Assembly: GCA_964450435.1 (NCBI GenBank)
Contig: CAYVCX010000002.1
Span: 43,760 to 107,759 of the forward strand
Length of the DNA stretch: 64,000 nt
Source of the DNA: an uncultured Anaerolineales bacterium
GTDB taxonomy: Bacteria; Chloroflexota; Anaerolineae; B4-G1
Reading direction: 5' to 3'
A model generated the notes under the pieces. The model ran no database searches. It worked only from the letters and a program-made list of their open reading frames with translations, and was not told where the DNA came from. This document shows, piece after piece, positions 6,207 through 37,220 of this stretch (position 1 is its first letter; every line of letters begins with the position of its first letter). The position numbers were made by a program, and so were the translations under genes.

Positions 6207-6335
6207 CCTGGAAGTCGAGGAGGGCACTCTAGGAGGATTGACCGGACCTACTGATTCTGGATCCCACAGGATCGCCCGGTGGGTCCGCAGAGCCCTCTGG
6301 ACGTTGATTCAGCGACGTTTCACACGGGAGGACGT

Positions 6336-7223: not shown

Positions 7224-7329
7224 GACGCGTGCCAGGCAAGGCCCGACGAGATTGGAGGGGCTTCTCGTCCCATCCACCCGGTTGATGCGGATGGGAAGGG
7301 CAGCAACGAGACCGGGCTGTGGAGGTTCT

Positions 7330-7734: not shown

Positions 7735-7795
7735 ACCTGTGTGTCTGGTGGTCAATCGGTAAACATATGTGGCCGCAAAATCTTGGAGCTAGTTA

Positions 7796-8662: not shown

Positions 8663-8719
8663 AGGGGGCCGGTAGAAGCGGGTGAGTTGGTGCGGTTGGC
8701 GGGTTCAGGGAGGAAGAAA

Positions 8720-10154: not shown

Positions 10155-10999
10155 GATACACGTACTATCCCGGGTGCACGGCTGAGACCACGGCTGTCGA
10201 GTTCGGCCTGTCCACCGAGGCGGTCTGTGAGGCTCTGGGCATGGAGTTGATCGAGATCGATGACTGGAACTGCTGCGGCGCCTCGTCGGCGCACAGCCTG
10301 GACCACGAGCTTGGTCTGTCCCTGCCCGGCCGTAATGTGGCCCTGGCTCAGAAGGCCGGGCTGGACATAGTGATTCCGTGCCCCGCCTGCTACCAGCACT
10401 GCCGCGACGCCGACATCAAGATGCGTGAGGACGAGGCCTGGCGCGCGAAGATGGAGAGGATCCTGGGGTTCCAATACGAGGGCGACGCGCTCCCGCGTCA
10501 CCTGCTGGAGGTCCTCAGCCGAGATTTCGACCGGGAGACCCTCAAAGAGAAAGTCAGCAGGCCCTTGAAAGGTCTCAAGGTAGCTTCCTACTACGGCTGC
10601 GTCCTGGTCCGCCCGCCGGAGCTAACCGGCTGGGACGATCCGGAGCATCCCACGACGATGGACCACCTGATGGCCGCTATCGGAGCCGAGATCGTCGACT
10701 GGTCCTACAAAGTAGATTGCTGCGGTGCGAGCATGACCCTCGCGCGCGGCGACATAGTCGTCGAGCTGTCCACCAAGGTCGTCGAAGGGGCCGTCGAAGC
10801 GGGCGCGGACTGTATTGTCTCCGCTTGCGGAATGTGCGAGATCAACCTTGATACGCGGCAGGCTGGCGAGAAGAAGATGCCTATTTTCTACTTCACCGAA
10901 CTGATGGGCCTCGCACTAGGGCTGCCCGGGATCGACAAGTGGTTGGGCAGACATAGCGTGGATCCCCGACCACTGCTTCGAGAACGAGGGCTTCTTTAG
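10151..10999 (+). CDS. hdrB: Heterodisulfide reductase subunit B
   Basis: N-terminal YYPGC and two CCG domains. It is translationally coupled to hdrC. Confidence 0.8.
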   Translation: MRYTYYPGCTAETTAVEFGLSTEAVCEALGMELIEIDDWNCCGASSAHSLDHELGLSLPGRNVALAQKAGLDIVIPCPACYQHCRDADIKMREDEAWRAKMERILGFQYEGDALPRHLLEVLSRDFDRETLKEKVSRPLKGLKVASYYGCVLVRPPELTGWDDPEHPTTMDHLMAAIGAEIVDWSYKVDCCGASMTLARGDIVVELSTKVVEGAVEAGADCIVSACGMCEINLDTRQAGEKKMPIFYFTELMGLALGLPGIDKWLGRHSVDPRPLLRERGLL

Positions 11000-14139: not shown

Positions 14140-15465
14140 GTGGGCAAAGGTGAACCAGGGGCGGTGGTGATTGGTGCTGGCATTGCTGGCATCCAGGCTG
14201 CGCTCGACATCGCGGATGCGGGCTTTCACGTGTATCTCGTGGAGCGCGAACCATCTGTCGGCGGGCGCATGGCTCAGCTAGACAAGACGTTTCCGACCCT
14301 GGACTGCTCTTCGTGCATCCTGACGCCCAAGATGGTCGACGTGGGCCAGCATCCCAACATCGAGCTGATGACCTATTCGGAGGTGGCGTCGGTCGAGAAG
14401 GATGATGGGGTCTTCCACGTGCGAGTGCGCAAGAAGCCCCGGTACGTGGACGTCGATCTGTGCCGTGGGTGTGGTGACTGCGCTGAAGCCTGTCGTCTCA
14501 AAGGGCGCGTTTCGAGCAACTTCGATGCGGGTATCGCCAACAGGTCGGCTATTTACGTACCTTTCCCTCAAGCAGTCCCGCTGAAGTACACCATCGACCC
14601 GGAGGCGTGCCTCTATCTGACCCGCGGGGTCTGTGGACGTACGTTCAAGTGCAAGGACGCCTGTCCAGCCGAGGCCATCGATTTCGAGCAGGAAGAGGAG
14701 TTCGTGGACGTCGATGTGAGGACCATCGTTGTGGCCACGGGGTTCGATATCATCGAGCCGGAGACCAAGCCGGAATACGCCTACGGTGTCTATCCCCAGG
14801 TGATGACGGGCATCGAGTTTGAGCGGCTTTCTGATGCCTCGGGGCCCACAAGAGGACAGATTCTGATCGATGGAAAGAAGCCGAAAGATGTCGTGTTCAT
14901 CAAGTGCGTCGGCTCCCGAGACCCGCATACGGGAGTCCCCTACTGCTCTCGAGTCTGCTGTATGTATACGGCGAAACACGCTCATCTGGTGCGAGAAAAG
15001 GTGCCCGAAGCGAACATCACCGTCTTCTATATGGACGTGCGCGCTTTCGGTAAGGGATACGAGGAGTTCTACGATCGTGTGAAGCACGAACGAGTCAACT
15101 ACCGGCGCGGAGAACCCTCCGAGGTCTATCGACGCGGCGACAAGCTGGTTGTGCTGGCCGAGGATACCAGTCTGGGAGAGGTCGTTGAGGTCGAGGCCGA
15201 TCTGGTGGTCCTGGCAACGGCCATTGTGCCACGAACGGACATACAGGATGTCGCCGAGGTGTTGGGCTTGGAGCGGTCTGCGGATGGGTTCTTCCAGGAG
15301 TCGGACACGAAGCTGCGTCCGGTCGACACGAATGTGGAGAACGTCTTTGTGGCCGGCTGTTGCCAGAGCCCCAAGGATATCCCGGATACAGTCGCACAGG
15401 CGAAAGCCGCGGCTTCTTGCGCGTTGAGGGTGTTGGTCCGAGCCAGGGAAGCCGTGCCCGCTTAG
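14140..15465 (+). CDS. hdrA: HdrA-like FAD protein, short form (N-half type, 441 aa) with intact DKTFPTLDCSSCIL motif
   Basis: The GAGIAGIQAA FAD fold, the FPTLDCSSCIL motif and an internal ferredoxin motif are all present. Confidence 0.8.
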   Translation: MGKGEPGAVVIGAGIAGIQAALDIADAGFHVYLVEREPSVGGRMAQLDKTFPTLDCSSCILTPKMVDVGQHPNIELMTYSEVASVEKDDGVFHVRVRKKPRYVDVDLCRGCGDCAEACRLKGRVSSNFDAGIANRSAIYVPFPQAVPLKYTIDPEACLYLTRGVCGRTFKCKDACPAEAIDFEQEEEFVDVDVRTIVVATGFDIIEPETKPEYAYGVYPQVMTGIEFERLSDASGPTRGQILIDGKKPKDVVFIKCVGSRDPHTGVPYCSRVCCMYTAKHAHLVREKVPEANITVFYMDVRAFGKGYEEFYDRVKHERVNYRRGEPSEVYRRGDKLVVLAEDTSLGEVVEVEADLVVLATAIVPRTDIQDVAEVLGLERSADGFFQESDTKLRPVDTNVENVFVAGCCQSPKDIPDTVAQAKAAASCALRVLVRAREAVPA

Positions 15466-15598
15466 CCCTCCAACCGCGCTTGTCATTCTAGGGAGTGTGG
15501 CAGGTGCAGCGGGGTGACGGCGAAGAATCTCCCTGATGTTGGATTGACTTTTCCAGCGATGCGGGGCTGTGAGCGGTAGGGTGGTAGAGGAGAACGAG

Positions 15599-16774
15599 AT
15601 GGCATTGAAGACAGCAAGCATGGCCGAGAAGTTGGAGCTCTTCGGCTGCATTCAGTGTGGGAAGTGCACGGGCGGATGTCCCGTGGCGCGTAAGACGACG
15701 CTCAACATTCGTACGTTGATCTACCACATGCTGGTTGACCCGGATATGGATGTGGATGCCCATCAGGAGTTGTGGGATTGCACCTCGTGCTTTACCTGCG
15801 TCGAGCGCTGTCCCAAGGACGTGGAGCCAGCCGAGTTGATCATCTCCTTGCGCGGCGAGCTGGTGGAGAGCGGCCGCGTCCCCGAGACCGTCGGTACTGC
15901 GCTGATGGGCATCTTCCGGCAGGGCAATCCGAGCGGTATGGCCCGCCAGGATCGTGAGTTGTGGGCAGAAGGCGTCGAGGACAGCCTGCAGCGGGCCAAG
16001 CAGGCGGTGCAGGAGGGGTGCGACCTGCTCTATTTCGTGGGCTGTATTCCTTCCTACGACCAGCGGATACACCCTGTCGCTCGCGCGCTCTTGAAGATCT
16101 TTGAGAGCGCGGGGCTGACCGTGGGCACCCTGGGCACACAGGAATCGTGCTGCGGGAATGAGGTCCGGCGGATGGGCGAGGTGGGGCTGTTTGAGATGCT
16201 CGCCGAGGAGAACGGTGAGCTTCTCCGCAGTGTCGGGGCCCGGCGGATAGTCACCACCTCACCTCACTGCTTTAACACCTTCGTGAATGAGTACGGTCTC
16301 GATGAGATGGAGGTGCTGCATTACACGCAGCTTCTGGCGAACCTCATCGAGAACGGCGAAGTGGCCTTCCCGGGGAGCCTGGCCGCAGAGGACGGCAGCG
16401 AGAAGGTGGTAACCTATCACGACCCCTGCTTCCTGGGCAAGCAGAATCATATCTATGACGAACCCCGCGCGATCCTGGATGCCATTCCTGGCGTCAAGCT
16501 GGTGGAGATGGACCGCAGTCGCGAGCGTAGCCTCTGCTGCGAGGGCGGCGGCGGACGCATGTGGGTCGAGGGGACGAATCTGGAGGAGCGGCTCGCCTTT
16601 CAGCGCGTTCAGGAAGCGGCGGAGACGGGGGCGGAGGTCCTGGCTGTGGCCTGCCCGTTCTGTCTGCTGACCCTCGAGGACGCGGTGAAGGTGGAAGGCC
16701 TGGACGAGCAGTTGCGGGTGATGGACATCATGGAGCTGGTCGAGCTGGCCTCAGAGGAGACGGACGAGGAGTGA
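15599..16774 (+). CDS. hdrD: HdrD-like fused HdrC-HdrB Fe-S oxidoreductase (GlcF/LutA family)
   Basis: N-terminal 2x[4Fe-4S] (CIQCGKCTGGCP, CTSCFTCVERCP) followed by two CCG domains. A GAGGAG RBS precedes the ATG at 15599. Confidence 0.75.
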   Translation: MALKTASMAEKLELFGCIQCGKCTGGCPVARKTTLNIRTLIYHMLVDPDMDVDAHQELWDCTSCFTCVERCPKDVEPAELIISLRGELVESGRVPETVGTALMGIFRQGNPSGMARQDRELWAEGVEDSLQRAKQAVQEGCDLLYFVGCIPSYDQRIHPVARALLKIFESAGLTVGTLGTQESCCGNEVRRMGEVGLFEMLAEENGELLRSVGARRIVTTSPHCFNTFVNEYGLDEMEVLHYTQLLANLIENGEVAFPGSLAAEDGSEKVVTYHDPCFLGKQNHIYDEPRAILDAIPGVKLVEMDRSRERSLCCEGGGGRMWVEGTNLEERLAFQRVQEAAETGAEVLAVACPFCLLTLEDAVKVEGLDEQLRVMDIMELVELASEETDEE

Positions 16775-16847
16775 GCGGCGAGGCGCCCGGGCGACTACCC
16801 GCCCAGGGGCCCGCGCGCTCGTGCTCCTGGCTTGAGTGGGTGACATT

Positions 16848-18602
16848 ATGAAACAAGAACCCCGTATCGGTGTGTACGTTTGCCATTGCGGCGTGAACAT
16901 CGCTTCCGTGGTTGACGTGGAGGCGGTGGCCGAGGCTGCGGCCGACCTGCCGGGTGTGGTGGTCGCCAGGCACTACACCTATATGTGCTCTGACCCGGGG
17001 CAGGCGCTGATCAAGGAGGATATTCGTGAACGTGGACTGAACCGGGTTGTTGTGGCGTCCTGTTCGCCCCGCATGCACGAGCCCACTTTCCGGGCGGCCG
17101 CTCAGCAGGAAGGGGTGAATCCGTACCAGGTGGACATGGCCAACATCCGCGAGCAGTGCTCGTGGGTCCATAAGGACCACGAGAAGGCCACACAGAAAGC
17201 CATCTCGCTCGTGGCTTCGTCAGTGGCCAGAGCAGCCTGCCTCGAGTCTCTCGAGGAGCGTGAGGTCGACGTTACGCCCGGCGCGGTTGTCATCGGTGGC
17301 GGAATCGCGGGTATGACCGCTGCCCTTGACATTGCCGACACCGGCTTGCCCGCCTACCTGATAGAGAAGGAGGATCACCTCGGCGGGCGCGTCTCGGCGC
17401 TCAACCGCACGTTTCCAACCTTGGAATCGGTGTCGGATTTGCTGGAGCCCTTCGTTGCGCGGGTTCACCAGCATCCGAATATCACTGTCTTTCTTCGTTC
17501 CCGTGTGTCCAACGTTGACGGGTACGTGGGCAATTTCCACGTGGAGATCTCCCGGGATGAGCGAGCCGGGGCCGAGGCGAGGGACGGTGAAGCTGCGGAG
17601 CACGCGTCCCTCCGCTCCGAGGTGAAAGCCGGCTCGATCATCGTGGCCACAGGGTATGACGTCTTCAACCCGGACCGGACTCCTGAGCTCGGCTACAGCG
17701 ACTACCCCAATGTGATTACCTCCCTGGAGATGGAGGAGCGTCTGCTGGAGGGCGATCTGACGGTGGACGGGCGCACTCCGGAACGCGTGGCATTCATCCA
17801 GTGTGTGGGATCGCGGGACAAACAGCTGGGCAATCCGCACTGTTCGCGGGTCTGCTGCATGTACACTGCCAAGCAGTCCCGCCTGGTGCGCGAGATGGTT
17901 CCCGAGGCGGAGGTGACCGTCTTCTACATCGACGTGCGAACCTTTGGCAAGGGAGCAGAGGAGTTCTACGACGAGGCCCGTAACAAAGGGGTCCGCTACC
18001 GCCGGGGGAACGTCTCGGAGATCTATCGGCGCAGGCGGAGCGAGGGTGGCGATCGCGTCGTCTTGATAGCGGAGGACACATTGCTCGGCCAGCCCATTGA
18101 GTTTGAGGCGGATCTCGTGGTCCTTGCCGTCGGCATGGAGCCCCGAGATAGTGCCGGCACGGTCTCGCAACTCCTGAAACTGCCGCGCTCCTCCGACGGG
18201 TTCTTCCTGGAGGCCCACCCCAAGTTGAGGCCTGTGGATACGGCGATGGCGGGTGTCTTCCTCGCTGGCTGTTGCCAGGGCCCCAAAGACATTCCCGACA
18301 CCGTTGCCCAGGCCAAGGCGGCGGCCTCCTCGGCGCTGATACCCTTGATTCGCGGGTCCGTGCCCGTTGAATCGGCAACGGCCGTGGTGAGCGAGGAGCT
18401 TTGTGCCGGGTGTGGCATGTGCGCCGATGTCTGTCCCTATGATGCGCCGGCCCTGGACACGCTGTGGGGCGTCTCGCGCATCAACCCCGTCCTCTGTGAG
18501 GGCTGCGGGGCGTGTGCCGTTACCTGCCCCTCCAGGGCCATTCGACTCCAGCACTTCACTGTCGAGCAGGTGCTGGCGCAGGTGGACGCCCTGGTCGGGT
18601 AG
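16848..18602 (+). CDS. hdrA: HdrA (classical domain order: N-terminal Cys-rich domain, FAD domain, C-terminal ferredoxins), but with a degenerate FAD-site Cys motif
   Basis: N-terminus IGVYVCHCGVNIASV is typical of HdrA. The expected DKTFPTxDCxxCIL is replaced by NRTFPTLESVSDLLEP, which has no cysteines. Confidence 0.8.
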   Translation: MKQEPRIGVYVCHCGVNIASVVDVEAVAEAAADLPGVVVARHYTYMCSDPGQALIKEDIRERGLNRVVVASCSPRMHEPTFRAAAQQEGVNPYQVDMANIREQCSWVHKDHEKATQKAISLVASSVARAACLESLEEREVDVTPGAVVIGGGIAGMTAALDIADTGLPAYLIEKEDHLGGRVSALNRTFPTLESVSDLLEPFVARVHQHPNITVFLRSRVSNVDGYVGNFHVEISRDERAGAEARDGEAAEHASLRSEVKAGSIIVATGYDVFNPDRTPELGYSDYPNVITSLEMEERLLEGDLTVDGRTPERVAFIQCVGSRDKQLGNPHCSRVCCMYTAKQSRLVREMVPEAEVTVFYIDVRTFGKGAEEFYDEARNKGVRYRRGNVSEIYRRRRSEGGDRVVLIAEDTLLGQPIEFEADLVVLAVGMEPRDSAGTVSQLLKLPRSSDGFFLEAHPKLRPVDTAMAGVFLAGCCQGPKDIPDTVAQAKAAASSALIPLIRGSVPVESATAVVSEELCAGCGMCADVCPYDAPALDTLWGVSRINPVLCEGCGACAVTCPSRAIRLQHFTVEQVLAQVDALVG

Positions 18603-18659
18603 GGAGACTGTCGTGATTCTGAGAGCGTACGCTTAACGGGATATTGAGGAGAGAAACTA

Positions 18660-19088
18660 ATGAGTGAGGAGCAGTTCGAGCCCAAGATAGTAGGTTTCCT
18701 CTGCAACTGGTGCACGTACACCGGTGCTGATCTGGCTGGAACGTCGCGGATCCAGTATCCGCCCAACGTGCGGATCATCCGCCTGATGTGCTCCGGGTCG
18801 GTGGACCCTACCTACGTGCTCAAGCCGCTGCTTGATGGCGCCGACGGTGTCCTGGTCGGTGGCTGTCATCCCGGCGACTGTCACTACCAGTCGGGGAATT
18901 ATAAAGCCCGTCGCCGCATCATAGCCCTGAAAGAGATCCTGAAGAACGCTGGCCTGGATGAGGAGCGCGTGTGGTTGCGCTGGATCTCCGCGTCGGAAGG
19001 ACAGCGATTTGCGGACACCGTCACGGAGATGACCGAATTCCTCCGCGAGAAAGGGCCGAACCCGATGCGCAGGGAATGGGCTGTCTAG
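18660..19088 (+). CDS. mvhD: MvhD (methyl-viologen-reducing hydrogenase delta subunit family; 2Fe-2S electron-transfer protein for HdrA)
   Basis: Motifs FLCNWCTYTGADLAG, CSG and GGCHPGDCHY. A GAGGAGAG RBS is present. Confidence 0.85.
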   Translation: MSEEQFEPKIVGFLCNWCTYTGADLAGTSRIQYPPNVRIIRLMCSGSVDPTYVLKPLLDGADGVLVGGCHPGDCHYQSGNYKARRRIIALKEILKNAGLDEERVWLRWISASEGQRFADTVTEMTEFLREKGPNPMRREWAV

Positions 19089-19134: not shown

Positions 19135-20247
19135 ATGCGAACTTTGATTCCGGTTGAGAATGGGGATACGCTCGTGGCGGTGCAGAGCTTTCTTAAGCAG
19201 CTTCTGGAAGCTGACGTGGTGGACGCCCTCCTCGTGCCTATGCAGACCCCCAGCGGTGCTGTCACGCCTGCTCTGGTGTCGGATCCCGAGCTGTTGGACG
19301 CAGCCAATCCACTTGCCCCGGTGATGGGGCTCAATGCGGCCCCTCTGGCTGGTCGAGTCTCCGTCCGCGAGCCTCGGGAGCGTGTGGGGGTGGTGTTGCG
19401 CTCGTGCGAGCTGCGCGCGTTAACCGAGCTGGTCAAGCTGCAGCAGGCCAGCCTGGATGATCTGATCACCATCGGCGTGGATTGTCTGGGCACCTATGAC
19501 GTAAGCGTGTACACTGAAATGCGGAACGATGGCGGCGTCGATATGGGGGCCTACCTGGCGACGGCTCGAAGCGGTGATCTGGCCGCTCAAGACGGAGTTG
19601 CGTTTCGTGATGGGTGTGAGATGTGCGAGAAACCCCACGCTGCAGCCGCCGACATCATAGTGGAGCTGTTCGGCGCCGATGCGAGCACCGCCGTCCCTGT
19701 CTCGTTGCCCGATGAGATGGCCGAGACACTGGGATTGAGCCCTGGGGAGGGCGTGGAGCAGCGCCAGCAGGTGATCGAGAAGGTCGTCGCAGCACGCACC
19801 GAGGTCCGCGATCAGCGCTTTGCCGAGATTCGTGAGCGGCTTGAAGAGGAGGGCGTGGAAGGGGTCTTCGCCTCCTGCGTCCGCTGTCACAACTGCATGA
19901 CCGTCTGCCCCATCTGCTACTGCAAGACCTGTCTGTTCAGAAGCCAGGTCTTCGACCACGAGCCGATGCAGTACGCGAACTGGGCCAGGCGCAAGGGAGC
20001 CTATCGTCTGCCCGCTGACACAATGCTCTTCCACCTGACCCGCCTGAACCATATGGTGCTCTCCTGCATTGGGTGTGGCATGTGCACCAGCGACTGTCCC
20101 GCCGAACTGCCCGTCGGTGCCGTCTTTCGGGCCATTGGGCAGGCGACCCAGGAGGTCTTTGACTACGAGCCCGGTCGCGACGTCGAGGAGCCGCTGCCGC
20201 TGATCACCTTCAAGGAGGAAGAGTGGATGGATGTTGGAGAGGAGTAG
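19135..20247 (+). CDS. FrhB/FdhB-family protein (F420-hydrogenase/dehydrogenase beta-like flavo-iron-sulfur protein)
   Basis: Motif LRSCELRAL resembles the FrhB core, and there are two 4Fe-4S motifs (CVRCHNCMTVCP, CIGCGMCTSDCP). The family assignment is by eye only. Confidence 0.45.
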   Translation: MRTLIPVENGDTLVAVQSFLKQLLEADVVDALLVPMQTPSGAVTPALVSDPELLDAANPLAPVMGLNAAPLAGRVSVREPRERVGVVLRSCELRALTELVKLQQASLDDLITIGVDCLGTYDVSVYTEMRNDGGVDMGAYLATARSGDLAAQDGVAFRDGCEMCEKPHAAAADIIVELFGADASTAVPVSLPDEMAETLGLSPGEGVEQRQQVIEKVVAARTEVRDQRFAEIRERLEEEGVEGVFASCVRCHNCMTVCPICYCKTCLFRSQVFDHEPMQYANWARRKGAYRLPADTMLFHLTRLNHMVLSCIGCGMCTSDCPAELPVGAVFRAIGQATQEVFDYEPGRDVEEPLPLITFKEEEWMDVGEE

Positions 20248-20252
20248 AGACC

Positions 20253-20951
20253 ATGGAAGAGAAGCAAGAAAGCCTGATCCCTGTTTACATCATAGGCAAG
20301 CGCTACATGGTGCCGCCGACGCTGACCATCATGAAAGCTATGGAGTACGCGGGCTACCAGCTCATTCGCGGTGTGGGCTGTCGCGGCGGGTTCTGCGGGG
20401 CCTGTGGGACCACTTATCGCATCAAGGGCGACCCCAAGCTCTACTTCGATCTCGCCTGCCAGACGGTGGTGCAGCCGGACATGTACCTGGCCCAGATACC
20501 ATTTTTCCCTGCGCAGCGAGCGACCTACGACCTCACTCAGATGGAGGCCACGCCTGCTACCCTGTTCTCTACCTACCCGGAGCTGCTCCGCTGCCTCGGG
20601 TGCGGCGCTTGCACCAAAGCCTGCCCTCAAGATCTCGACGTGAGGGCCTACATGGCAACGGGCATGAAGGGTGATATCGCCGAGATGGCCGATCTATCCT
20701 TCGACTGCATCATGTGCGGCCTCTGCGCGGCGCGCTGTCCTGCCGAGGAGGCTCAGTACAATATTGCCATCCTGGCGCGACGGCTCTACGGTCGGTATCT
20801 GGCGCCGCGGTCGCAGCACCTGGAGGAGCGCCTCGAGGAGATCGAGGCGGGCGCGTTCGACGCGAAACTGGAGGAGCTGAAGGAGCTCAACCGTGATGGG
20901 CTCGTAGAGCGATACGAGGCCCGCGATATCGAGCCAGAGGAACGCGAGTAG
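20253..20951 (+). CDS. SdhB/FrdB-like iron-sulfur subunit (2Fe-2S plus 4Fe-4S plus a third cluster)
   Basis: Motifs CRGGFCGACG (2Fe-2S), CLGCGACTKACP and CIMCGLCAARCP. The ATG at 20253 is taken as the start; the listed ORF at 20223 overlaps the upstream gene. Confidence 0.6.
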   Translation: MEEKQESLIPVYIIGKRYMVPPTLTIMKAMEYAGYQLIRGVGCRGGFCGACGTTYRIKGDPKLYFDLACQTVVQPDMYLAQIPFFPAQRATYDLTQMEATPATLFSTYPELLRCLGCGACTKACPQDLDVRAYMATGMKGDIAEMADLSFDCIMCGLCAARCPAEEAQYNIAILARRLYGRYLAPRSQHLEERLEEIEAGAFDAKLEELKELNRDGLVERYEARDIEPEERE

Positions 20952-20968
20952 AGGAGGATTAGGAACCC

Positions 20969-22576
20969 ATGAACGGCTATCCTGCCGAGATGCAGGAATC
21001 GATCAGACAGGTCGAGGCGACCCGTATGCGCCGCATCGACGAGACGCATCCCCGGATGTCCATCGAGGAGCGCGAGCGTGTGCTAGATCAGTTTCATCCC
21101 GATTACATCGAGGAGAGAATGCGCTCTGTACGCGTCGGCGTCAGCAAAGGCCAGCGTATGCCCCTCGAGTTGGCCAACGTAGTTGAGGGACGCCCGCACG
21201 TCAGTCCCGATTTCGACCTCAGCGAGCCCGTGGCCGAGACCGACGTGCTCGTCATCGGCGGCGGCGGCGCGGGTGCATCGGCCGCACTCCTCGCTCAGGA
21301 GGACGGTGCCCGAGTGATCGTGGTGACCAAGCTCCGCTTCGGCGACGCCAACACCATGATGGCCCAGGGCGGCATCCAGGCTGCCGATCGTCCCAACGAC
21401 AGCCCCGCCATTCACTACCTGGACGTCATCGGCGGCGGTCACTTCACCAACGACCCCGATCTGGTAGAGGCCCTGGTGATGGACGGTCCGGTGGTCATTG
21501 ACTGGCTCGAGCGTCTGGGAGTGATGTTCGACAAAGAGCCGGACGGGACGATGGTGGAGCGCCACGGCGGTGGAACCAGCCGTATGCGCATGCACTCCGC
21601 CCGCGACTACTCTGGTGCCGAGATCATGCGCACCCTGCGGGATGAGGTGCGTAACCGCGAGGACGATATCCGAGTGATTGAGTTCGCCCCCGCCGTGGAG
21701 CTGGTGCTTGACGATAATGGGTGTGTCGCCGGTGCCATCATGATGAACCTGGAGACGAAGGCCTATTCCTACATTAAAGCCAAAGCAGTCGTCGTGGCCG
21801 CCGGCGGGGGAGGACGGCTCCATTACCAGGGCTTCCCTACCACCAACCACTACGGCGCGACGGCGGATGGCGTGGTGATGGCCTACCGCGCCGGCGTCTC
21901 ACTTGGATACTTGGAGTCTATGCAGTATCATCCCACTGGGGCGGCTTTCCCGGAGCAGATTGTGGGTCAGTTGGTGACGGAGAAGGTCCGCGGGCTGGGT
22001 GCCCAGCCTGTCAACAAGCACGGTGAGCAGTTTGTCTTCCCCCTTGAGCCGCGCGATGTGGAGGCGGCCGCCTTCATCCGCGAGTGTCGGGAGCGCGGCA
22101 ACGGGCTCGTCACGCCCACAGGACAGCCCGGCGTCTGGCTTGACTCACCCATGATTGAGATCATCCATGGGCCTGGCACGATTCGCGAGAACTTGCCGGC
22201 GATGGTGCGTCAGTTCAAACGCTTCGACATAGATATGACCAAGGAGCCGATGCTCGTCTATCCGACACTCCATTACCAGAACGGCGGTGTGCGCCTGGAG
22301 CCTGATGGATCGACCGCGGTCCCGGGCCTGTTCATCGCCGGCGAGGTGAGCGGCGGGGTGCACGGTCATAACCGGCTGATGGGCAACTCGCTCTTGGAGG
22401 TCAGCGTCTACGGGCGGCGCGCCGGCTGGTCGGCCGCGGACTATGCCCGCGACGCCGTAGTGGGGCAGGCCAATCTGGCCCACGTGAAGACCTGGAATCA
22501 GGAGCTGGAAGAGACCGGTGTGGACACGGGCGTCATCTCGCCCATTCTCCTGCCGGATTACACGCGGCGGACGTAG
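20969..22576 (+). CDS. Succinate dehydrogenase / fumarate reductase flavoprotein-like FAD oxidoreductase
   Basis: FAD fold DVLVIGGGGAGASAA, an HPTG motif, and the 535 aa length. An AGGAGGA RBS is present. Confidence 0.7.
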   Translation: MNGYPAEMQESIRQVEATRMRRIDETHPRMSIEERERVLDQFHPDYIEERMRSVRVGVSKGQRMPLELANVVEGRPHVSPDFDLSEPVAETDVLVIGGGGAGASAALLAQEDGARVIVVTKLRFGDANTMMAQGGIQAADRPNDSPAIHYLDVIGGGHFTNDPDLVEALVMDGPVVIDWLERLGVMFDKEPDGTMVERHGGGTSRMRMHSARDYSGAEIMRTLRDEVRNREDDIRVIEFAPAVELVLDDNGCVAGAIMMNLETKAYSYIKAKAVVVAAGGGGRLHYQGFPTTNHYGATADGVVMAYRAGVSLGYLESMQYHPTGAAFPEQIVGQLVTEKVRGLGAQPVNKHGEQFVFPLEPRDVEAAAFIRECRERGNGLVTPTGQPGVWLDSPMIEIIHGPGTIRENLPAMVRQFKRFDIDMTKEPMLVYPTLHYQNGGVRLEPDGSTAVPGLFIAGEVSGGVHGHNRLMGNSLLEVSVYGRRAGWSAADYARDAVVGQANLAHVKTWNQELEETGVDTGVISPILLPDYTRRT

Positions 22577-22654
22577 CTGGGCAGGGGAGCAGTGGATCAC
22601 CGACTGGATGCGCGAACGGACAATGAACAGACATATCAGGAAACGAGAGGGAAA

Positions 22655-25600
22655 ATGCCTTTGAAGACGGAACATGGAACTGCTGGGGCGGTACTGGTAG
22701 TGGGCGGCGGCGTTGGGGGCATGCGGGCGGCAATTGATGCAGCCGAGGCCGGGCTGAAGGTCTATCTCCTGGAGAGGCTGCCGTGGATAGGAGGCCGCGT
22801 GGCACAGCTGGGCTATATGTTCCCCACCCACGACTGTGTGCTTTGCCGGGGGACTGCTGACCACGGCTATGGCTGCACAAAGCCAACTATCTCACCGGCC
22901 CTCCTCGATTTCAACCTGCATCCCAACATCGAAATATTGAACAACTCGGACCTGATCAGCGTCGGCGGTCGAGCGGGTGACTTCACCGTGACCGTGCGCC
23001 GTCGCCCTACGTACGTGGACGCCGATCATTGCATCAACTGCGGGATATGCAGTGCCGTGTGCCCGGTTAGCCTTCCCAGCCCTTTTGAAGAAGCACTGAA
23101 GCCCCGCAAGGCGATCTACAAGATGGCCCCGCGGGCGGTGCCCAACACCTATATTGTGGACAAAGTTCCGCGTTGCGAGACCTGTCGCCGCTGCGAGGCC
23201 GTGTGCCCGACTGAGGCGGTCCATCTCGATGAGAGGGAATTCGAGCAAGAACTGGATGTCGGGGCCATTATCCTGTCGGTGGGGTTCTCATTGCCCGACC
23301 CCGGGGAGTACGAGGAGCTGGGCCATGGCCGCTATCCCAACGTCATCCACTCGATGGAGTACGAACGGCTGGCCAGCCGTTCTGGCCCCACGGAGGGGGT
23401 GGTTATGCGCCCGTCCGACGGGGCAGAGCCCGATCGCATCGCCTGGCTGCAGTGCATTGGGTCCCGCGATCAGAAATATCCCTTTTGCTCCTCAATCTGC
23501 TGCATGTACGCTACCAAGGAGGCAATGGTAGCGAAAGAGCGGATCGACGATGTTCGGTGCCAGATCTTTATGATGGATGAGCGCGCCTTCAACAAGGAGT
23601 TCAACGCCTACTATGAACAGGCGCGTGAGGAGTATCAGATAGAGTACACCCGCTGCCGCATCTCCGAGGTCAAGGAGGATCCGGACACCCACGACTTGAT
23701 CCTCCGCTACCCCGACGACGAAGGGCGTATGCATGAGGAGCAATTCGACATGGTGGTTCTCTCCGTCGGCGCGCACCCGCCGAACGGGTCGAAGGACCTG
23801 GCCAACGTGCTGCAAATTGAATTGAACCCCTACGGCTTCTGTGAGACGGACAAGTTCGCGCCGTTGGAGACCAGCCGGCCGGGCATCTACGTTTGCGGGG
23901 CCTTTGCCTCCCCGAAGGAGATCGCCGAGACGATCCTGGATGCTGCTGGAGCGGTAGGGGATGTCACTCGTCTGATGCGAGAGCAGGTTGGCCGACTGCC
24001 TGCCAGCCGTGAGTTTCCATTCCTCTGGAGGCCGGACAGACTGCCCGCCGAGCGGGACGTGAGCGGCGAAGAGCCCCGCGTGGGCGTCTTCCTCTGCCGC
24101 TGCACGCCCACGCTCGACGGTGTGGTGGACGTGGACGAGGTGGCTGGCTTCGCTGAGGCGATGCCGAACGTGGTTCACGTCCGACCGGTGGAGTACGGCT
24201 GCTTCGAGCCAGGCCTGGACGCCATCCGATCTGATATCAAGGAGCACGGGCTGAATCGCGTGATCGTCGCAGCTTGCAGCCATCGCACTCACGAGCCACT
24301 GTTCCAGCGTACGGTGCGGGAGGCAGGGCTGAATCCCTACCTCCTGGAGATGGTGAATGTGCGGGAGCACTGTGCCTGGGCCCATATCGATGATCCGCCC
24401 GGGGCCACTCGCAAGGCGAAGGAGCTGATGCGCATGGCGCTGGGTCGCGTCCTGGCGGCCGAGCCGGTCCACAAACTGGAGCTCAGGCCTGTGCCTCGGA
24501 CCTTGGTCATCGGCGGCGGGGTGGCGGGGATGACCGCTGCACTGAACGTCGCCGATGCCGGCTACGACGTGACGCTGGTGGAACGCGAATCGGAGTTGGG
24601 AGGGAATCTGCGCAACGTCTACTACGTGGCCGAGCCCGAGAATCCCCAGCGGCTGCTGCGTGATCTGATCAACCGCATCATCGGTCACGAGCGCATCGAT
24701 CTTCTGACCGAGACCGAGCTTGTGTCGCACAGGGGACGCGTCGGTGACTTCACATCTGTGCTTCGCAACCTGCGCGACGGGCGCATTGTGGAGACCGAAG
24801 TAACTCACGGTGCTACGATCGTCGCCACCGGAGGGCGCGAATGGCGGGGTGACGTCTACATGCTGGGACGTGATCCTCGAGTAGTCACCTCAGAGGACTT
24901 GGAGGATATCATCGCCCATCGCCCGGAGGAGATCACCGACCTGGAGCAGGTGGTCTTCATCCAGTGCGTGCGCCCACCCGGTGGAGTGGAGTACTGCAGT
25001 CGTATTTGCTGCACCAACACGATGAAGAATGCGAATCGCATCAAGATGCTCAATCCCAGCTGCCAGGTTGTTGTACTGTATCAGGACATCATCACCTACG
25101 GTTTCCGGGAGGCATTCTACACCGAGGCGCGCGAGCGCGGTGTCATCTTTATGCGATACGATGAGGAGCATCTCCCGGATCTACGCAAGGTGAACGGTGA
25201 TCTGGAACTCACGGCGTGGGACCCAACTCTGGATAGAGAGACAACTCTCAGGCCCGACATGCTGGCCTTGAGTATGGCGATCGAGCCTTCTCCCGGCACG
25301 GAGAAGTTGGCGCGGATACTGGGAGTGGATCTCTCCAGCGAGGGCTTCTTCATGGAGGCCCACCTGAAGATGAGGCCCATGGACTTCGCGTCGGAGGGCA
25401 TCTTCTTCTGCGGCATGGCGCATTACCCCAAGTTCATTGAGGACGCCATTGCCAACGCCCAGGCTGCCGCGGGACGGGCGCTTACCATCCTCTCGAAGGA
25501 TCGCCTCTATATCGGCGGCGTGATCGCCGAGGTGGATCAAGATAGTTGTGTGGGTTGCTTGACTTGCGTGCGGACCTGCCCCTTCGAGGTCCCGGAGATA

Positions 25601-25801
25601 CGCGGCGAGGATATGGGAGTCGGCAAGATCAAGGGAGCGGCATACATCGAACCGGGCCTCTGTCAGGGGTGCGGCACGTGCGTCGGTGAATGTCCGGCCA
25701 AAGCTATTCAGCTGATCAACTATCGAGACGAACAGATCATGGCCCATTCCCTGGGGAGCTGGATGCCGGAGGTCGTGGGTCAGGGAGAGTACAATGGATA
25801 A
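22655..25801 (+). CDS. hdrA: Tandem HdrA-like flavoprotein (about 1048 aa), same architecture as 11024-14092
   Basis: Motifs VLVVGGGVGGMRAA and FPTHDCVLC in the first half. Motif VFLCRCTPTLDG and a second GGGVAGMTAA in the second half. Ferredoxins at the C-terminus. Confidence 0.8.
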   Translation: MPLKTEHGTAGAVLVVGGGVGGMRAAIDAAEAGLKVYLLERLPWIGGRVAQLGYMFPTHDCVLCRGTADHGYGCTKPTISPALLDFNLHPNIEILNNSDLISVGGRAGDFTVTVRRRPTYVDADHCINCGICSAVCPVSLPSPFEEALKPRKAIYKMAPRAVPNTYIVDKVPRCETCRRCEAVCPTEAVHLDEREFEQELDVGAIILSVGFSLPDPGEYEELGHGRYPNVIHSMEYERLASRSGPTEGVVMRPSDGAEPDRIAWLQCIGSRDQKYPFCSSICCMYATKEAMVAKERIDDVRCQIFMMDERAFNKEFNAYYEQAREEYQIEYTRCRISEVKEDPDTHDLILRYPDDEGRMHEEQFDMVVLSVGAHPPNGSKDLANVLQIELNPYGFCETDKFAPLETSRPGIYVCGAFASPKEIAETILDAAGAVGDVTRLMREQVGRLPASREFPFLWRPDRLPAERDVSGEEPRVGVFLCRCTPTLDGVVDVDEVAGFAEAMPNVVHVRPVEYGCFEPGLDAIRSDIKEHGLNRVIVAACSHRTHEPLFQRTVREAGLNPYLLEMVNVREHCAWAHIDDPPGATRKAKELMRMALGRVLAAEPVHKLELRPVPRTLVIGGGVAGMTAALNVADAGYDVTLVERESELGGNLRNVYYVAEPENPQRLLRDLINRIIGHERIDLLTETELVSHRGRVGDFTSVLRNLRDGRIVETEVTHGATIVATGGREWRGDVYMLGRDPRVVTSEDLEDIIAHRPEEITDLEQVVFIQCVRPPGGVEYCSRICCTNTMKNANRIKMLNPSCQVVVLYQDIITYGFREAFYTEARERGVIFMRYDEEHLPDLRKVNGDLELTAWDPTLDRETTLRPDMLALSMAIEPSPGTEKLARILGVDLSSEGFFMEAHLKMRPMDFASEGIFFCGMAHYPKFIEDAIANAQAAAGRALTILSKDRLYIGGVIAEVDQDSCVGCLTCVRTCPFEVPEIRGEDMGVGKIKGAAYIEPGLCQGCGTCVGECPAKAIQLINYRDEQIMAHSLGSWMPEVVGQGEYNG

Positions 25802-26252
25802 CGAAGGAACCGGACACGAAGGATTCGTACCGGAAATCACCGCCTTTACCTGCATCTACTGCGGCTACATGTCTGCCGACACCGCCGGGACGCTGCGGCT
25901 CACCTATCCGTCGAATGTCAAGTTGGTTCGATTGCCGTGTACCGGCAAGGTAGACGTACGCCATCTCTTGAACGCCTTTGAGGAAGGGGCAGATGGCGCC
26001 TACGTGGTCGCCTGTCCCATTGGCAACTGCCATCACGTCCACGGCAACGAACGGGCGGTGAAGAGAATCGAGTACACCAAGAAACTGCTGGATGAGGTGG
26101 GCATCGGCGGCGAGCGCCTGGACATCGTCTTCACCACCGGGGGGATGGGAGCTTCCTTCGCCAATGCCGCCAGGCGCATGACAGAGCGTATCAGAGAGCT
26201 GGGTCCGAACCCGCTGAACGGACACGGGGCTGAAGGGCTGGGGAGTCGGTAG
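25794..26252 (+). CDS. mvhD: MvhD paralog (variant motif ACPIGNCHHVHG)
   Basis: Motif FTCIYCGYMSADTAG. It overlaps the stop of the upstream hdrA by 8 nt. Confidence 0.8.
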   Translation: MDNEGTGHEGFVPEITAFTCIYCGYMSADTAGTLRLTYPSNVKLVRLPCTGKVDVRHLLNAFEEGADGAYVVACPIGNCHHVHGNERAVKRIEYTKKLLDEVGIGGERLDIVFTTGGMGASFANAARRMTERIRELGPNPLNGHGAEGLGSR

Positions 26253-26339: not shown

Positions 26340-29300
26340 ATGCAGCAAGTTGTCAAGCAGAGGAGTCCTATTGGTGCCGCGATGGTGGTCGGCGGCGGAG
26401 TCGCTGGCATTCAAGCGTCACTGGATATGGCGGAGGCCGGCTACAAGGTCTATCTGGTGGAGGCCAAGTCGGCCATCGGTGGGCACATGGCACAGCTGGA
26501 TAAGACCTTTCCCACCAATGACTGCGCCATGTGCATCATCAGCCCCAAGCTCGTGGATGCCGGTCGCCATCGCAACATCGAGCTGTTGGTCGATAGCGAG
26601 GTCATCGGGGTTCAGGGCGAGGCTGGGGATTTCGCCGTTCGTCTGCGCCAGAGGCCCCGTTACATCGACCTCGACAAGTGTACCGGCTGCGGCGACTGCG
26701 CCGATGTCTGTCCGGTCGTCATCCCCAGTCAATTCGACGAAGGATTGGCGGAGCAGCGGGCGGCTTACAAACTCTATCCGCAGGCTGTGCCCAACGCCTT
26801 TGCTATCGAGAAGCGGGGAGTCGCACCCTGTCGTGACGCCTGCCCGTCCGGGCAGCGTGCTCAGGGCTACATCGCCCTTATCCGGGAGGGGCGCTACGAA
26901 GACGCCCTGCGGGTCATTAAGGAGGACAACCCTTTTCCCGGCATCTGCGGCCGCATCTGCAATCACCGCTGTGAGGATGCCTGCAACCGGGGCAAGTTGG
27001 ATGAGCCGATCAACATTCGGGCGCTGAAGCGTGTCGTCACAGACAGGGTCTACGCCGAAACGCGAGCGCCTGTCCAGCCAGCGGAGCGGATCTACGACGA
27101 GCGCGTCGCCATCATCGGGGCTGGACCATGTGGGCTCACCGCAGCCCAGGATCTCTGTAAGGAGGGTTATGCGGTCACTGTCTTCGAGGCTCTCCCTGTG
27201 GCCGGCGGAATGCTCCGTGTTGGCGTTCCTGAATACCGCTTGCCCTCCGAGATCGTGGATCGGGAAGTCCGCGACATTGTCGATCTTGGTGTGGATCTGC
27301 GGCTGAATCGTCGGGTGGACAACCTGGATGAGGTTTTCGACAAGGGTTTCGACGCTGTGCTCGTTGCTGTGGGCGCTCACGAGGGCGTCCGGCCCCCCGT
27401 TCCCGGCGCCGACCAGGAGGGAGTGCTGGTTAGCACCGTGTTCCTGCGCGACGTGCGAATCGGCGAGCCACCGGAGCTGGGAGAGCGCGTCGCAGTCGTC
27501 GGGGCTGGTGATGTGGCGATGGACGTGGCCCGTACTGCCGTGCGGTTGGGGTCGGAGGTCCACGTCTTTTACCGCCGCCGGCGTCAAGACGCTACCGCTG
27601 CCGAGCAGGAGATCCGGCACGCCGCGGAGGAGGGAGTATCCTTTCACTTCCAGACCAATCCCACGGAGATCATCGGCGATGGTGACGGCAGGCTGAAAGG
27701 GATGATGTGCGTCGACACCGAGCCGGGAATGCCGGACCGGTCTGGCCGACCGCGCCCGGTTCCCATCCCCGAATCCGAGCACTTCGTCCCGTGCGACGAC
27801 GTCATCTTCGCCGTGGGCCAGCGCGCCGGCCTGGCTTTCATCCCGGAGAGCTCCGGCGTGGGCATCACGGATCAATCTACCATCGCGGTGAATCCCAACA
27901 CCATGGCTGCCACCCGCGAAGGCGTCTTCGCTGCGGGCGACGCTACAACTGGCACGGCCTTCGTCATCGAGGCGGTCGCTCACGGTCATAGAGCCGCCCG
28001 CTCGATCCACCGCTACTTGCGCGGCGAGGAGCTGGAGCCGCCACCCGAGCCGGACCTCCCCGTCGTGGAGCTGACCCAGGCGGAAATTGAGGAGCGTGTG
28101 ACCCGGGGCGAGGTCCAGGTTCAGCCCCGGGTGCCGATGGACGAGCTCTCGGTCGACGAACGGGTCTCCACCTTCCAGGAGGTGACGACGGGCTACACCG
28201 ATGAGCAGGCCCAGGCCGAAGCGGCCCGCTGCCTGGCCTGTGGGATCTGCTCCGAGTGTCTCAGTTGTGTCTATGAGTGTGAGGCCGATGCCGTCGTCCA
28301 CGACATGGTGGAGCAGGTGTATGATATCGACGTCGGCGCTATCCTTATGGCCCCCGGCTTTGAAGCTTATCACGCCGAGGGTTCGGCGGAGTACGGTTGG
28401 GGACGCTATCCTAATGTGATCACCTCCGTTCAACTCGAGCGGCTGCTCAATGCTTCTGGACCCACGCACGGTCACGCGCGGCGACCATCGGACGGGAGGA
28501 CGCCGAAGCGCATCGCCTTCCTCCAATGCGTCGGCTCGCGCGATCAGGAGCACGACTACTGTTCCTCTGTTTGCTGTATGTATGCCACCAAGGAGGCCAT
28601 TCTGGCCATCGAGCACGAGCCAGATACCGAGGTCACCATCTTCATGATGGACATGCGGGCCTTCAGCAAGGGCTACGAAGAGTACTATCAGAGGGCCCAG
28701 GACCGTTACGGCATCGAGTACGTCCGCTGTCGCATTTCCGAGATCAAAGAGGACCCAGACACCCACGATCTGCTGGTGCGCTACGTTGAGGGCGAAGGCT
28801 CGCAATTCGCCGTTCGCCACGCCCGGTTCGACATGGTGGTGCTTTCGGTGGGGATGGAGGTGCCTGAGAGTGTCCGTGATCTGGGCCAGCGGTTAGGCAT
28901 TGCGCTGGATGAGTATGGCTTCGCCCGGACGAACCCCTTCGCCCCCCTGGAGTCCAGCAAGGCGGGCATTTTCGCGCTCGGTCCGTTCCAGGAGCCGAAG
29001 GATATCCCTGAATCAGTGGTTCAGGCCAGCGGGGCGGCTGGCCTGGCCGGTGCGCTGCTGGCTCCCGCTCGTTGGACGCTGACGGAGGAGGAACCGTATC
29101 CTCCGGAACGAGACATCTCCCAGGAGGAACCTCGTGTCGGTGTCTTTATCTGCCATTGCGGCTCGAACATCGCTGGCTTCTTGGATGTGCCTGCCGTGGC
29201 CGAGCACGCCGGTATGCTGCCCGGGGTCGTCCATGCTGAACATAACCTCTACTCCTGCTCCCAGGATGCCATTCAACACATCACGGAGGTGACGAAAGAA

Positions 29301-32531: not shown

Positions 32532-32540
32532 GGTAGAACA

Positions 32541-33527: not shown

Positions 33528-33536
33528 GGCAGGGAG

Positions 33537-37184: not shown

Positions 37185-37220
37185 GTTATGTATGCCTGAG
37201 CGTGCCTGGGAGGTGACTCT

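Follow-up and report, generated by a model that had tools for sequence, protein, structure and literature searches.

A fumarate reductase-like gene pair next to FdhB-like, MvhD and Hdr genes in an uncultured Anaerolineae bacterium: a candidate Hdr-linked fumarate reductase

The module and its three proteins

In a stretch of 64,000 nucleotides from an uncultured Anaerolineae bacterium (the window, to which all positions refer) we analysed a module of three genes on the + strand (19135-22576) as a candidate fumarate reductase coupled to heterodisulfide reductase (Hdr) proteins. The module sits directly after mvhD (18660-19088) and before a tandem hdrA (22592-25801). It encodes a 370-residue iron-sulfur (Fe-S) (flavo)protein of the FdhB/ElpB/FrhB family (19135-20247), a 232-residue Fe-S subunit resembling SdhB, FrdB and the N-terminal part of TfrB (20253-20951), and a 535-residue flavoprotein of the fumarate reductase superfamily (SdhA/FrdA/NadB; 20969-22576).

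The open reading frames (ORFs) were confirmed exactly at the positions given by a first-pass annotation of this DNA (19135-20247, 20223/20253-20951 and 20969-22576) and are separated by gaps of only 5 to 17 bases. The identities assigned there to the three genes and to their neighbours (mvhD, tandem hdrA, three HdrD-like proteins, fumarase and a KorDABC-like enzyme) agree with the ORFs and with our domain searches. ATG starts at 19135, 20253 and 20969 are each preceded by a GGAG-rich Shine-Dalgarno sequence. For the middle gene the mechanical ORF begins at GTG 20223, but the ATG at 20253 is favoured because it carries the Shine-Dalgarno GGAGAGGAG. The flavoprotein ATG at 20969 has a good ribosome-binding site, and the unusual N-terminal 88 residues are therefore translated.

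The flavoprotein matched Pfam FAD_binding_2 over residues 92-475 (E=1.6e-72). Only about 40 residues follow this domain, and no Pfam match to the C-terminal helical domain Succ_DH_flav_C was found in the protein. The N-terminal extension of about 88 residues is conserved and well predicted (pLDDT 83-97), and it is therefore regarded as a folded part of the flavoprotein. The AlphaFold2 (AF2) model of the protein (pLDDT 93, pTM 0.92) was closest to E. coli FrdA (1.7e-36) and M. smegmatis Sdh1, and flavocytochrome c3 fumarate reductases and E. coli NadB also ranked high; these structural matches cover about 450 columns, corresponding to the FAD and capping domains. Individual residues were compared with E. 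coli FrdA/SdhA and NadB by pairwise and multiple alignments. It was found that the dicarboxylate-binding and proton-relay residues are all kept, namely His321 (HPTG), Thr337-Glu338-x-x-Arg341, Arg362, His435 and Arg469, with Arg362 aligned to the proton donor of E. coli FrdA/SdhA. The His that carries covalent FAD is replaced by Asn128. Loss of covalent FAD leaves fumarate reduction intact and abolishes succinate oxidation. Where NadB has Glu121 and Sdh/Frd have Phe, this protein has His199; the residue is variable across the clade, in which Glu does not occur there.

Among the NCBIfam models the flavoprotein scored best with TfrA (342.5 bits), followed by actinobacterial Sdh (290), NadB (282) and SdhA/FrdA (282). 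The TfrA match (NF004900) is limited to model positions 5-426 of 546, with the C-terminal 120 positions absent, and a genuine TfrA-like representative (P0173) scored 765 bits on the same model; with this partial match and a cut-off of 718 bits, membership of TfrA is not supported. In the PDB the best matches were SdhA/FrdA (8e-71 to 5e-52) and NadB (about 1e-51). AprA was matched at about 1e-4 through the N-terminal FAD motif only, and an AprA identity was likewise rejected. The features of SdhA/FrdA are divided: FAD_binding_2 and the catalytic residues are present, the C-terminal domain and the covalent-FAD His are absent, and the score on TIGR01812 (SdhA/FrdA) is 282 bits against a cut-off of 567. 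A canonical complex II was rejected on the missing domain and His together with the lack of any anchor among the window genes scanned.

A tree was built by neighbour-joining with Kimura distances from representatives at 50% identity of a full-library search and three E. coli references, with NCBIfam labels for key representatives. Only two of its splits are well supported, both with 97% bootstrap. One holds the flavoprotein, grouped with other N-terminally extended forms, together with short forms of about 400 residues, and the other is the NadB clade, which includes E. coli NadB and excludes the flavoprotein. L-aspartate oxidase was rejected on the latter split, on His199 at the Glu121 position and on the score with TIGR00551 (NadB; 282 bits, cut-off 453). 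A phylogeny of the flavoprotein had been set beforehand as a check on the first-pass annotation, and the outcome does not refute it, with no clustering with NadB and with AprA excluded by its PDB E-value. By its sequence the flavoprotein falls in a clade of its own, which is neither AprA nor NadB and lies outside the curated TfrA and SdhA families.

The Fe-S protein contains Pfam Fer2 and 4Fe-4S dicluster domains and no CCG domain. Read from the translation, its Cys residues form a C-x4-C-x2-C...C motif, as is usual for the [2Fe-2S] site of SdhB-type proteins, and two complete copies of C-x2-C-x2-C-x3-CP for two [4Fe-4S] clusters; the second copy we take to be the TfrB pattern and not the [3Fe-4S] motif of classical SdhB. 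The best architecture match was NCBIfam TfrB (NF004898), at positions 19-165, with 34.3 bits against a cut-off of 385. PDB matches were mostly to generic ferredoxins, with FrdB at only about 1e-3, and because this similarity is weak the label SdhB-like rests on architecture, adjacency and natural fusion. The gene adjoins the flavoprotein gene in 72 of 74 related loci, a natural fusion (P0122) consists of Fer2_4, dicluster and FAD_binding_2 domains, and Fe-S partners of 32-48% identity adjoin the flavoprotein in marine Gammaproteobacteria, a Prochlorococcus genome and other contigs. On the adjacency, the fusion and these homologous pairs outside the phylum we assign the Fe-S protein as the partner of the flavoprotein. 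Two further fusions near the clade (P0176 and P0190) were rejected as relatives, being unrelated reductases with FMN_bind and tandem FAD_binding_2 domains.

The FdhB-like protein gave a marginal Pfam match to FrhB_FdhB_C (23.8 bits, cut-off 23.3) in addition to a dicluster domain, and FrhB_FdhB_N was undetected in the Pfam search. A profile of 34 homologues was searched against the PDB, where it matched the beta subunits of F420-type formate dehydrogenases nearly end to end (residues 8-353), with E-values of 9e-32 (9t1s_M), 1.3e-23 (ElpB, 8rvu_E) and 1.6e-23 (FdhB, 7bkb_E). Fifteen Cys are invariant among the homologues and could bind about four clusters, as do those of FdhB and ElpB. Foldseek agreed with the profile, listing FdhB and ElpB first and then FrhB, HCAR and Fsr, but as the AF2 model is poor (pLDDT 57) the identity rests on the profile rather than on Foldseek. 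We assign the protein to the FrhB/FdhB/ElpB family by sequence homology over its full length, including the Fe-S Cys. MvhD (18660-19088), the [2Fe-2S] connector to HdrA, has a Pfam FlpD domain (181 bits), is flanked by HdrA (16836-18602) and is conserved in position. FdhB/ElpB together with MvhD/ElpC is structurally established as an arm of Hdr complexes, and it donates electrons in every complex characterised (PMC12350162).

Gene order and genomic surroundings

A scan of GTDB species genomes gave 420 loci that encode a relative of the flavoprotein, and the best 80 were mapped with all window proteins. All 80 are from metagenome-assembled genomes (MAGs) of Anaerolineae, with 69-88% identity. 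Homologues at 79-89% identity came from Anaerolineae and Thermoflexales MAGs. The order MvhD, FdhB-like protein, Fe-S protein, flavoprotein is almost invariant in the 80 genomes: the FdhB-like gene lies at most two genes upstream of the flavoprotein gene in 61 of 67 loci and MvhD at most three genes upstream in 53 of 61, and because of these counts and the adjacency of the Fe-S gene (72/74) the arrangement is not due to chance. HdrA or HdrL was found upstream in 39/39 loci and a CCG-domain protein (HdrB or HdrD) in 36/39. Directly before MvhD lies HdrA in 29 and HdrL in 8 of the 46 loci with enough flank, and a tandem HdrA follows the flavoprotein in 35 of the 80. Close relatives have the order HdrA-core, HdrD, HdrA, MvhD, FdhB-like protein, Fe-S protein, flavoprotein. 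The distant loci form a compact operon of HdrC, HdrB, HdrL, MvhD, FdhB-like protein, Fe-S protein and flavoprotein, with HdrL directly before MvhD and the flavoprotein gene last.

Genes for MetV-MetF and CooC follow the module in seven loci, mostly with a C39 peptidase gene as well. A few kb downstream the same loci contain FumA (7/7), FumB and KorD-KorA (5/7) and a full KorDABC (4/7), the remainder reaching the end of the sequence first. In a relative with 61% identity (L089) the order is KorD-KorA-KorB-KorC, HdrA, MvhD, HdrC, HdrB, Fe-S protein and flavoprotein, after which come a fumarase-beta-like stretch and the end of the contig, and two other loci (L070 and L076) interleave Kor, HdrA, MvhD, the FdhB-like gene, HdrCB and the Fe-S/flavoprotein pair. 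The link to Hdr that had been suggested from the window alone is thus borne out by the synteny kept across the 80 genomes, and also by those relatives that combine KorDABC, HdrA, MvhD, HdrCB, Fe-S protein and flavoprotein in one operon. The first-pass annotation had also stated that no SdhC/D anchor is present; in agreement with this, a crude hydropathy scan of the 42 annotated + strand genes (27-51335) found no SdhC/D-like anchor and at most two hydrophobic segments. No membrane-embedded protein was seen among those neighbours in the 80 loci that match window proteins (Hdr, MvhD, FdhB, MetVF, Kor), non-matching ORFs not being examined.

All other window genes described here are on the + strand as well. 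Upstream of the module are an HdrA-core-like flavoprotein of 441 residues (14140-15465; NCBIfam HdrA2, 543 bits, model positions 142-563), an HdrD-like protein with a dicluster and two CCG domains (15569-16774; Pfam CCG, 117 bits, and Fer4_8) and an HdrA of 588 residues (16836-18602; HdrA2, 678 bits), the first two of which are kept in close relatives. The HdrD-like protein resembles the C-terminal three quarters of TfrB, its best NCBIfam match being TfrB positions 123-485 at 170.4 bits (cut-off 385). TfrB is one polypeptide, in which an SdhB-like N-terminal half is fused to two CCG domains. As neither this protein nor the Fe-S subunit reached the cut-off and the two are neither fused nor adjacent, TfrB membership is not supported. 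Further HdrD-like proteins at 33537-34958 and 48642-49799 bring their number to three.

Downstream lie the tandem HdrA of 1069 residues (22592-25801; HdrA2, 812 bits in three stretches), a second MvhD (25794-26252; FlpD, 141 bits) and an HdrL-type fusion of 1501 residues, composed of a GltD-like NAD(P)H-binding module and HdrA (26340-30845; NCBIfam PRK12771 NAD(P)-binding, 544 bits with a cut-off of 516, and HdrA2, 933 bits). HdrL has been defined previously (PMC2702500). The true start of the tandem HdrA is probably ATG 22656, with the ribosome-binding site GAGGGAAA, and the mechanical GTG 22592 is probably wrong; the homologues align from about residue 17-45, in line with the later start. 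Further downstream are a class I two-subunit fumarate hydratase (39988-41522; alpha 39988-40872, beta 40812-41522), with Pfam matches to Fumerase (253 bits) and Fumerase_C (159 bits) and TIGR00722 and TIGR00723 above cut-off, and a four-subunit, KorDABC-like 2-oxoacid:ferredoxin oxidoreductase (OFOR; 41735-45022) with Pfam POR_N, TPP_enzyme_C and POR domains. The OFOR alpha subunit scored 566 bits on the NCBIfam model for 2-oxoacid:acceptor oxidoreductase alpha (cut-off 411), and the best specific matches are of the 2-oxoglutarate type, though below cut-off.

The module is embedded in a Wood-Ljungdahl gene cluster (acs/cdh, RACo, cooC, acsE, folD and two metVF pairs), a setting that the first-pass annotation did not mention. 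A CdhD fragment, the corrinoid Fe-S protein, the RACo activator, CooC/AcsF, the methyltransferase AcsE and FolD are encoded at 27-7223, and the two MetV-MetF pairs at 31848-33527 and 35668-37184, alongside a second CooC within 31848-38000.

Hdr paralogues are unusually dense in the window. There are two paralogous sets, one at 14140-19088 (HdrA-core of 441 residues, HdrD, HdrA of 588 residues, MvhD) and one at 45062-51335 (HdrA-core of 447 residues, HdrA of 588 residues, MvhD, HdrD, HdrC, HdrB), and extra HdrC/HdrB pairs lie at 7201-8662 and 9519-10999. A GNAT acetyltransferase gene (8687-9292) is inserted between the latter two pairs, and GNAT genes were also seen upstream of the module in two related loci (L050 and L071). 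The ORFs at 51406-52020 and 52036-54015 are one HdrA-MvhD fusion gene split by an in-frame TGA (codon 52018-52020) within the motif DKTYPTMDCSI-TGA-ILGPKMM. Because HdrA normally has Cys at this position, the TGA is very probably a selenocysteine codon. Downstream of this probable selenoprotein gene are genes for the small (Oxidored_q6) and large (NiFeSe_Hases) subunits of a [NiFe] hydrogenase (55644-57963), plausibly of the Mvh type, in a region of higher G+C (67-69%) and negative GC skew; their presence makes H2 a possible electron donor for the Hdr systems. An AbiEi-type antitoxin/helix-turn-helix gene (62465-63298) lies near the window end.

Outside Anaerolineae, three marine Gammaproteobacteria MAGs (L081-L083, 7366-10891) have a three-gene operon of Fe-S protein, a flavoprotein from the same clade (45% identity) and a NuoF-like NADH/FMN subunit, which may be a soluble NADH-dependent reductase; a donor at the NADH level fits the reductase direction. 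These organisms look aerobic, with UbiA, SCO1 and cytochrome c nearby. A Prochlorococcus-type contig (L084, 8001-10357) contains a flavoprotein/Fe-S pair with 40% and 32% identity, in a region of small hypothetical genes that may be an island, and the 90% cluster of the L084 protein includes one named Prochlorococcus sp. MIT 1201. In a further locus (L085, 7001-10497), which lies in a polysaccharide-synthesis cluster, the genes after a short form of the sister clade (406 residues) encode the alpha and beta subunits of fumarase and then ComA (phosphosulfolactate synthase). This context hints at a pathway of sulfonated or related C3/C4 acids.

Proposed function and alternatives

Our best reading, to which we give a probability of about 55%, is that the module encodes a cytoplasmic fumarate reductase predicted to be joined to an Hdr complex, with fumarate as the high-potential electron sink. 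Starting from the gene identities, the cofactor motifs, the conservation of catalytic residues and of gene order, and the exchange of partner modules among lineages, all observed here, we infer the physical complex, fumarate as substrate, the electron direction and bifurcation. The Fe-S protein (20253-20951) and the flavoprotein (20969-22576) would form a soluble heterodimer of a subunit with [2Fe-2S] and two [4Fe-4S] clusters and a flavoprotein with non-covalent FAD. The reaction of the flavoprotein would be a cytoplasmic reduction of fumarate, or of a closely similar C4-dicarboxylate enoate, to succinate. Lacking a quinol-oxidising anchor, the pair would dock to the FdhB/ElpB-type protein (19135-20247) and MvhD (18660-19088), in the place that FdhA has in FdhAB-MvhD-HdrABC. 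The fumarate/succinate couple is of high potential (about +30 mV), and for this reason the arm would most probably run outward, with an HdrA- or HdrL-type flavin passing electrons to fumarate. The exergonic step, in which a donor at the NAD(P)H level reduces fumarate, would pay for the reduction of ferredoxin, the likely co-acceptor, which would be used by the adjacent OFOR and by carbon monoxide dehydrogenase/acetyl-CoA synthase (CODH/ACS). The electrons may come from NAD(P)H, through the GltD-like module of HdrL, from a hydride carrier acting at the flavin of the FdhB-like protein, or from H2 through the Mvh-type hydrogenase. The succinate may supply a reductive branch from fumarase through fumarate reductase and succinyl-CoA to OFOR, with ferredoxin and Hdr carriers shared with the surrounding Wood-Ljungdahl genes. 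The electron partners of the Fe-S/flavoprotein pair vary, though always at the redox level of NAD(P)H or Hdr, as would be expected for the reductase of a high-potential acceptor, and the active-site residues together with the repeated link to fumarase make fumarate the obvious candidate.

Several observations weigh against this reading. The flavoprotein is without the Succ_DH_flav_C domain and scores below all curated cut-offs (TfrA 342/718, SdhA/FrdA 282/567, NadB 282/453), and the deep nodes of the tree are weakly supported, so that it does not fix the order of TfrA-like proteins, E. coli Sdh/Frd-like proteins and the flavoprotein clade. The variable His199 position means that the substrate could differ, and several homologues lie in unrelated contexts (SHMT-ThyX, that is serine hydroxymethyltransferase with ThyX; polysaccharide genes; aerobic Gammaproteobacteria; a Prochlorococcus genome). 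The low confidence of the FdhB-like model (pLDDT 57) leaves its flavin/hydride-carrier site putative. As an acceptor arm FdhB/MvhD would be without precedent, judging from its donor role in all characterised complexes, and the activity of the clade members is predicted from sequence only.

The first-pass annotation had suggested a TfrAB-like, thiol- or Hdr-linked enzyme. In a true thiol:fumarate reductase split into separate genes, the CCG domains of HdrD (15569-16774) or of HdrB would oxidise a dithiol, either of low molecular weight or part of a protein, electrons would pass along Fe-S clusters to the flavoprotein and on to fumarate, and HdrA would regenerate the thiol. We consider this unlikely. 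The best NCBIfam match of the flavoprotein is indeed TfrA, the Fe-S and HdrD-like proteins correspond to TfrB 19-165 and 123-485, a CCG-domain protein is usual upstream, and the second cluster motif is complete and, as we take it, TfrB-like. However, the TfrA and TfrB scores are all far below cut-off, the CCG protein never adjoins or fuses with the Fe-S subunit, whose constant neighbours are MvhD and the FdhB-like protein, and the Gammaproteobacterial pair goes with a NuoF-like partner and no CCG protein. We also know of no thiol cofactor in Anaerolineae. The resemblance to parts of TfrB encoded as separate genes therefore holds up and membership of the family does not, and a thiol as direct donor is not indicated more strongly than HdrA or NAD(P)H. 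Of the proposed reductive tricarboxylic acid (TCA) cycle fragment wired to Hdr carriers, the nearby fumarase and OFOR fit the reductive branch, and what had been missed is the FrhB-like protein with MvhD as the known donor arm. Another chemistry on the same architecture is somewhat less improbable than the thiol enzyme, though still a minority view: the flavoprotein might act on L-aspartate, on another enoate or dicarboxylate such as mesaconate, or on a sulfonated analogue, or the FdhB-like protein might be the catalytic site (for F420H2 or NAD(P)H, as in ElpB) with the Sdh-like pair as an accessory, like inactive ElpA. The position outside the curated families without the C-terminal domain, the varying Glu121/Phe position, the heterogeneous contexts elsewhere and the short-form sister clade beside ComA as well as fumarase all suit such a chemistry, as does the precedent of Elp-Hdr, whose ElpA is a homologue of FdhA without catalytic activity (PMC12350162). 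Yet all carboxylate-binding and proton-delivery residues are kept at about 80% overall identity across Anaerolineae, which argues for a live dicarboxylate active site; the well-supported NadB clade excludes the flavoprotein, the aspartate-specific Glu is absent, and the link to fumarase recurs.

Electrons running the other way, from a succinate dehydrogenase through the FdhB-like protein and MvhD into HdrA, for example in oxidative metabolism, would agree with the donor role of this arm in every characterised Hdr complex (PMC12350162). The flavoproteins of Sdh and Frd are homologues, and in principle either can run in reverse. We nevertheless judge this direction very improbable: a couple of about +30 mV is far too positive for reduction of ferredoxin or disulfide by bifurcation, the covalent-FAD His required for succinate oxidation is Asn, and the partners elsewhere are NADH-type modules. 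Least credible of all is an ordinary complex II (or NadB) with its anchor encoded elsewhere and a functionally meaningless hdr context. Public pipelines do label the homologues 'succinate dehydrogenase/fumarate reductase flavoprotein subunit', but 80 species-level genomes share the gene order, the flavoprotein is truncated and in a separate clade, and no anchor was seen in the window genes scanned or in the mapped parts of related loci. In addition, the Fe-S subunit has two full [4Fe-4S] motifs, presumably differing in this from classical SdhB with its quinone-facing [3Fe-4S] cluster.

Building on the fumarate reductase reading, a wider and distinctly tentative idea is that fumarate serves the Anaerolineae with a Wood-Ljungdahl pathway as the dedicated high-potential acceptor of HdrA/HdrL bifurcation, which would yield ferredoxin for CODH/ACS and the 2-oxoacid synthase and, in the reverse direction, might pull the difficult methyl-/methylene-tetrahydrofolate step (MetVF). 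The FdhB-like/MvhD arm would more generally be a universal socket that evolution has fitted with unrelated catalytic modules (formate dehydrogenase, dead ElpA or the fumarate reductase pair), as acceptor or donor arm.

Significance and comparison with known systems

Hdr-type complexes are the main low-potential electron source in many anaerobes, and for most bacterial versions the high-potential partner is unassigned. For MetFV-HdrABC-MvhD of acetogens, a passage of PMC7325909 that cites Mock et al. 2014 gives the second acceptor as unidentified. A conserved fumarate reductase module on the FdhB/MvhD arm would be a concrete acceptor for one large, abundant, uncultured lineage and, if true, would suggest a role for the orphan FdhB-like proteins beside HdrL/MvhD in sulfate reducers and syntrophs. 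The flavoproteins themselves form a previously undistinguished clade of truncated SdhA-like proteins, with an N-terminal extension, no C-terminal domain, predicted non-covalent FAD and a small Fe-S partner, and this clade extends to marine Gammaproteobacteria and a Prochlorococcus genome with different electron-input modules. Should the role of this fumarate reductase be anabolic only, the finding would help annotation but come as no surprise.

TfrAB of Methanothermobacter, a soluble anchor-less reductase in an anaerobe that makes 2-oxoglutarate via the reductive branch, represents the best-scoring curated families. Unlike TfrAB, the module has a flavoprotein of a separate clade, with an N-terminal extension and without the C-terminal domain, an Fe-S subunit without fused CCG domains, and MvhD and the FdhB-like protein as constant partners. 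In QmoABC-AprAB of sulfate reducers, HdrA-like flavoproteins, one with an MvhD-like domain, feed AprA (SdhA superfamily) via the Fe-S protein AprB. The module differs in that its flavoprotein is not AprA, no QmoC-like membrane subunit is present, and the presumed substrate is a dicarboxylate instead of adenosine 5'-phosphosulfate. Hydrogenobacter thermophilus reportedly has a soluble multi-subunit NADH-dependent Frd for the reductive TCA cycle, with extra subunits said to be related to Hdr/CCG- and GltD-type proteins; to our knowledge it has no MvhD or FdhB-like subunit.

The architecture is close to that of FdhAB-MvhD-HdrABC (Methanospirillum hungatei, 7bkb) and ElpABC-HdrABC (Methanothermobacter marburgensis, 8rvu), with the order HdrCB, HdrA/HdrL, MvhD, FdhB-like protein, catalytic subunit (PMC12350162, PMC5736913). 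The FdhB-like protein is a full-length homologue of FdhB/ElpB and MvhD is the same connector, whereas the molybdopterin protein FdhA/ElpA is replaced by the Fe-S protein and a fumarate reductase-type flavoprotein, HdrA is often replaced by NAD(P)H-binding HdrL, and the couple would be of high potential with the arm probably accepting. A bacterial operon HdrBCA-MvhD-FdhBA has been described in Chloroflexi DscP3/Dsc4 and Desulfobacula toluolica (PMC5736913), and the compact operon of the distant loci mirrors the Chloroflexi one. HdrCB, HdrL (GltD-HdrA fusion), MvhD and an orphan FdhB-like protein occur together in Sfum_0819-0824 (Syntrophobacter) and in the hdrL loci of Desulfobacterium autotrophicum (PMC5947623, PMC2702500); there the FdhB-like protein is without an identified catalytic partner, whereas in Anaerolineae the Frd-like pair follows.

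The concept of Hdr-coupled fumarate reduction is not new. Previously, it has been proposed for Ca. Endoriftia and Thioflavicoccus mobilis, with tfrAB amid flxABCD-hdrABC and korABCD in a reductive TCA cluster (PMC6315080, PMC11636981, PMC13147460), and for the 'succinate operon' of Pseudoclostridium thermosuccinogenes (PMC7282089). As in our module, fumarate reduction would be tied by Hdr bifurcation to ferredoxin, the genes lie amid korABCD and fumarase, and the coupling of the flavoprotein to Hdr is a proposal. Compared by description only, those systems have FlxABCD as NADH module and TfrA homologues as flavoproteins, whereas the partners here are MvhD, the FdhB-like protein and HdrA/HdrL inside a Wood-Ljungdahl cluster. 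A preprint goes no further than associations in STRING between HdrA and subunits of succinate dehydrogenase in some bacteria, and our literature searches found no description of this exact module in Anaerolineae. New in comparison with these systems is that an Frd-like pair replaces FdhA on the FdhB/MvhD arm, that the truncated, N-terminally extended flavoproteins form a distinct clade, that the module is conserved almost universally in an abundant uncultured lineage, and that it lies inside a Wood-Ljungdahl cluster.

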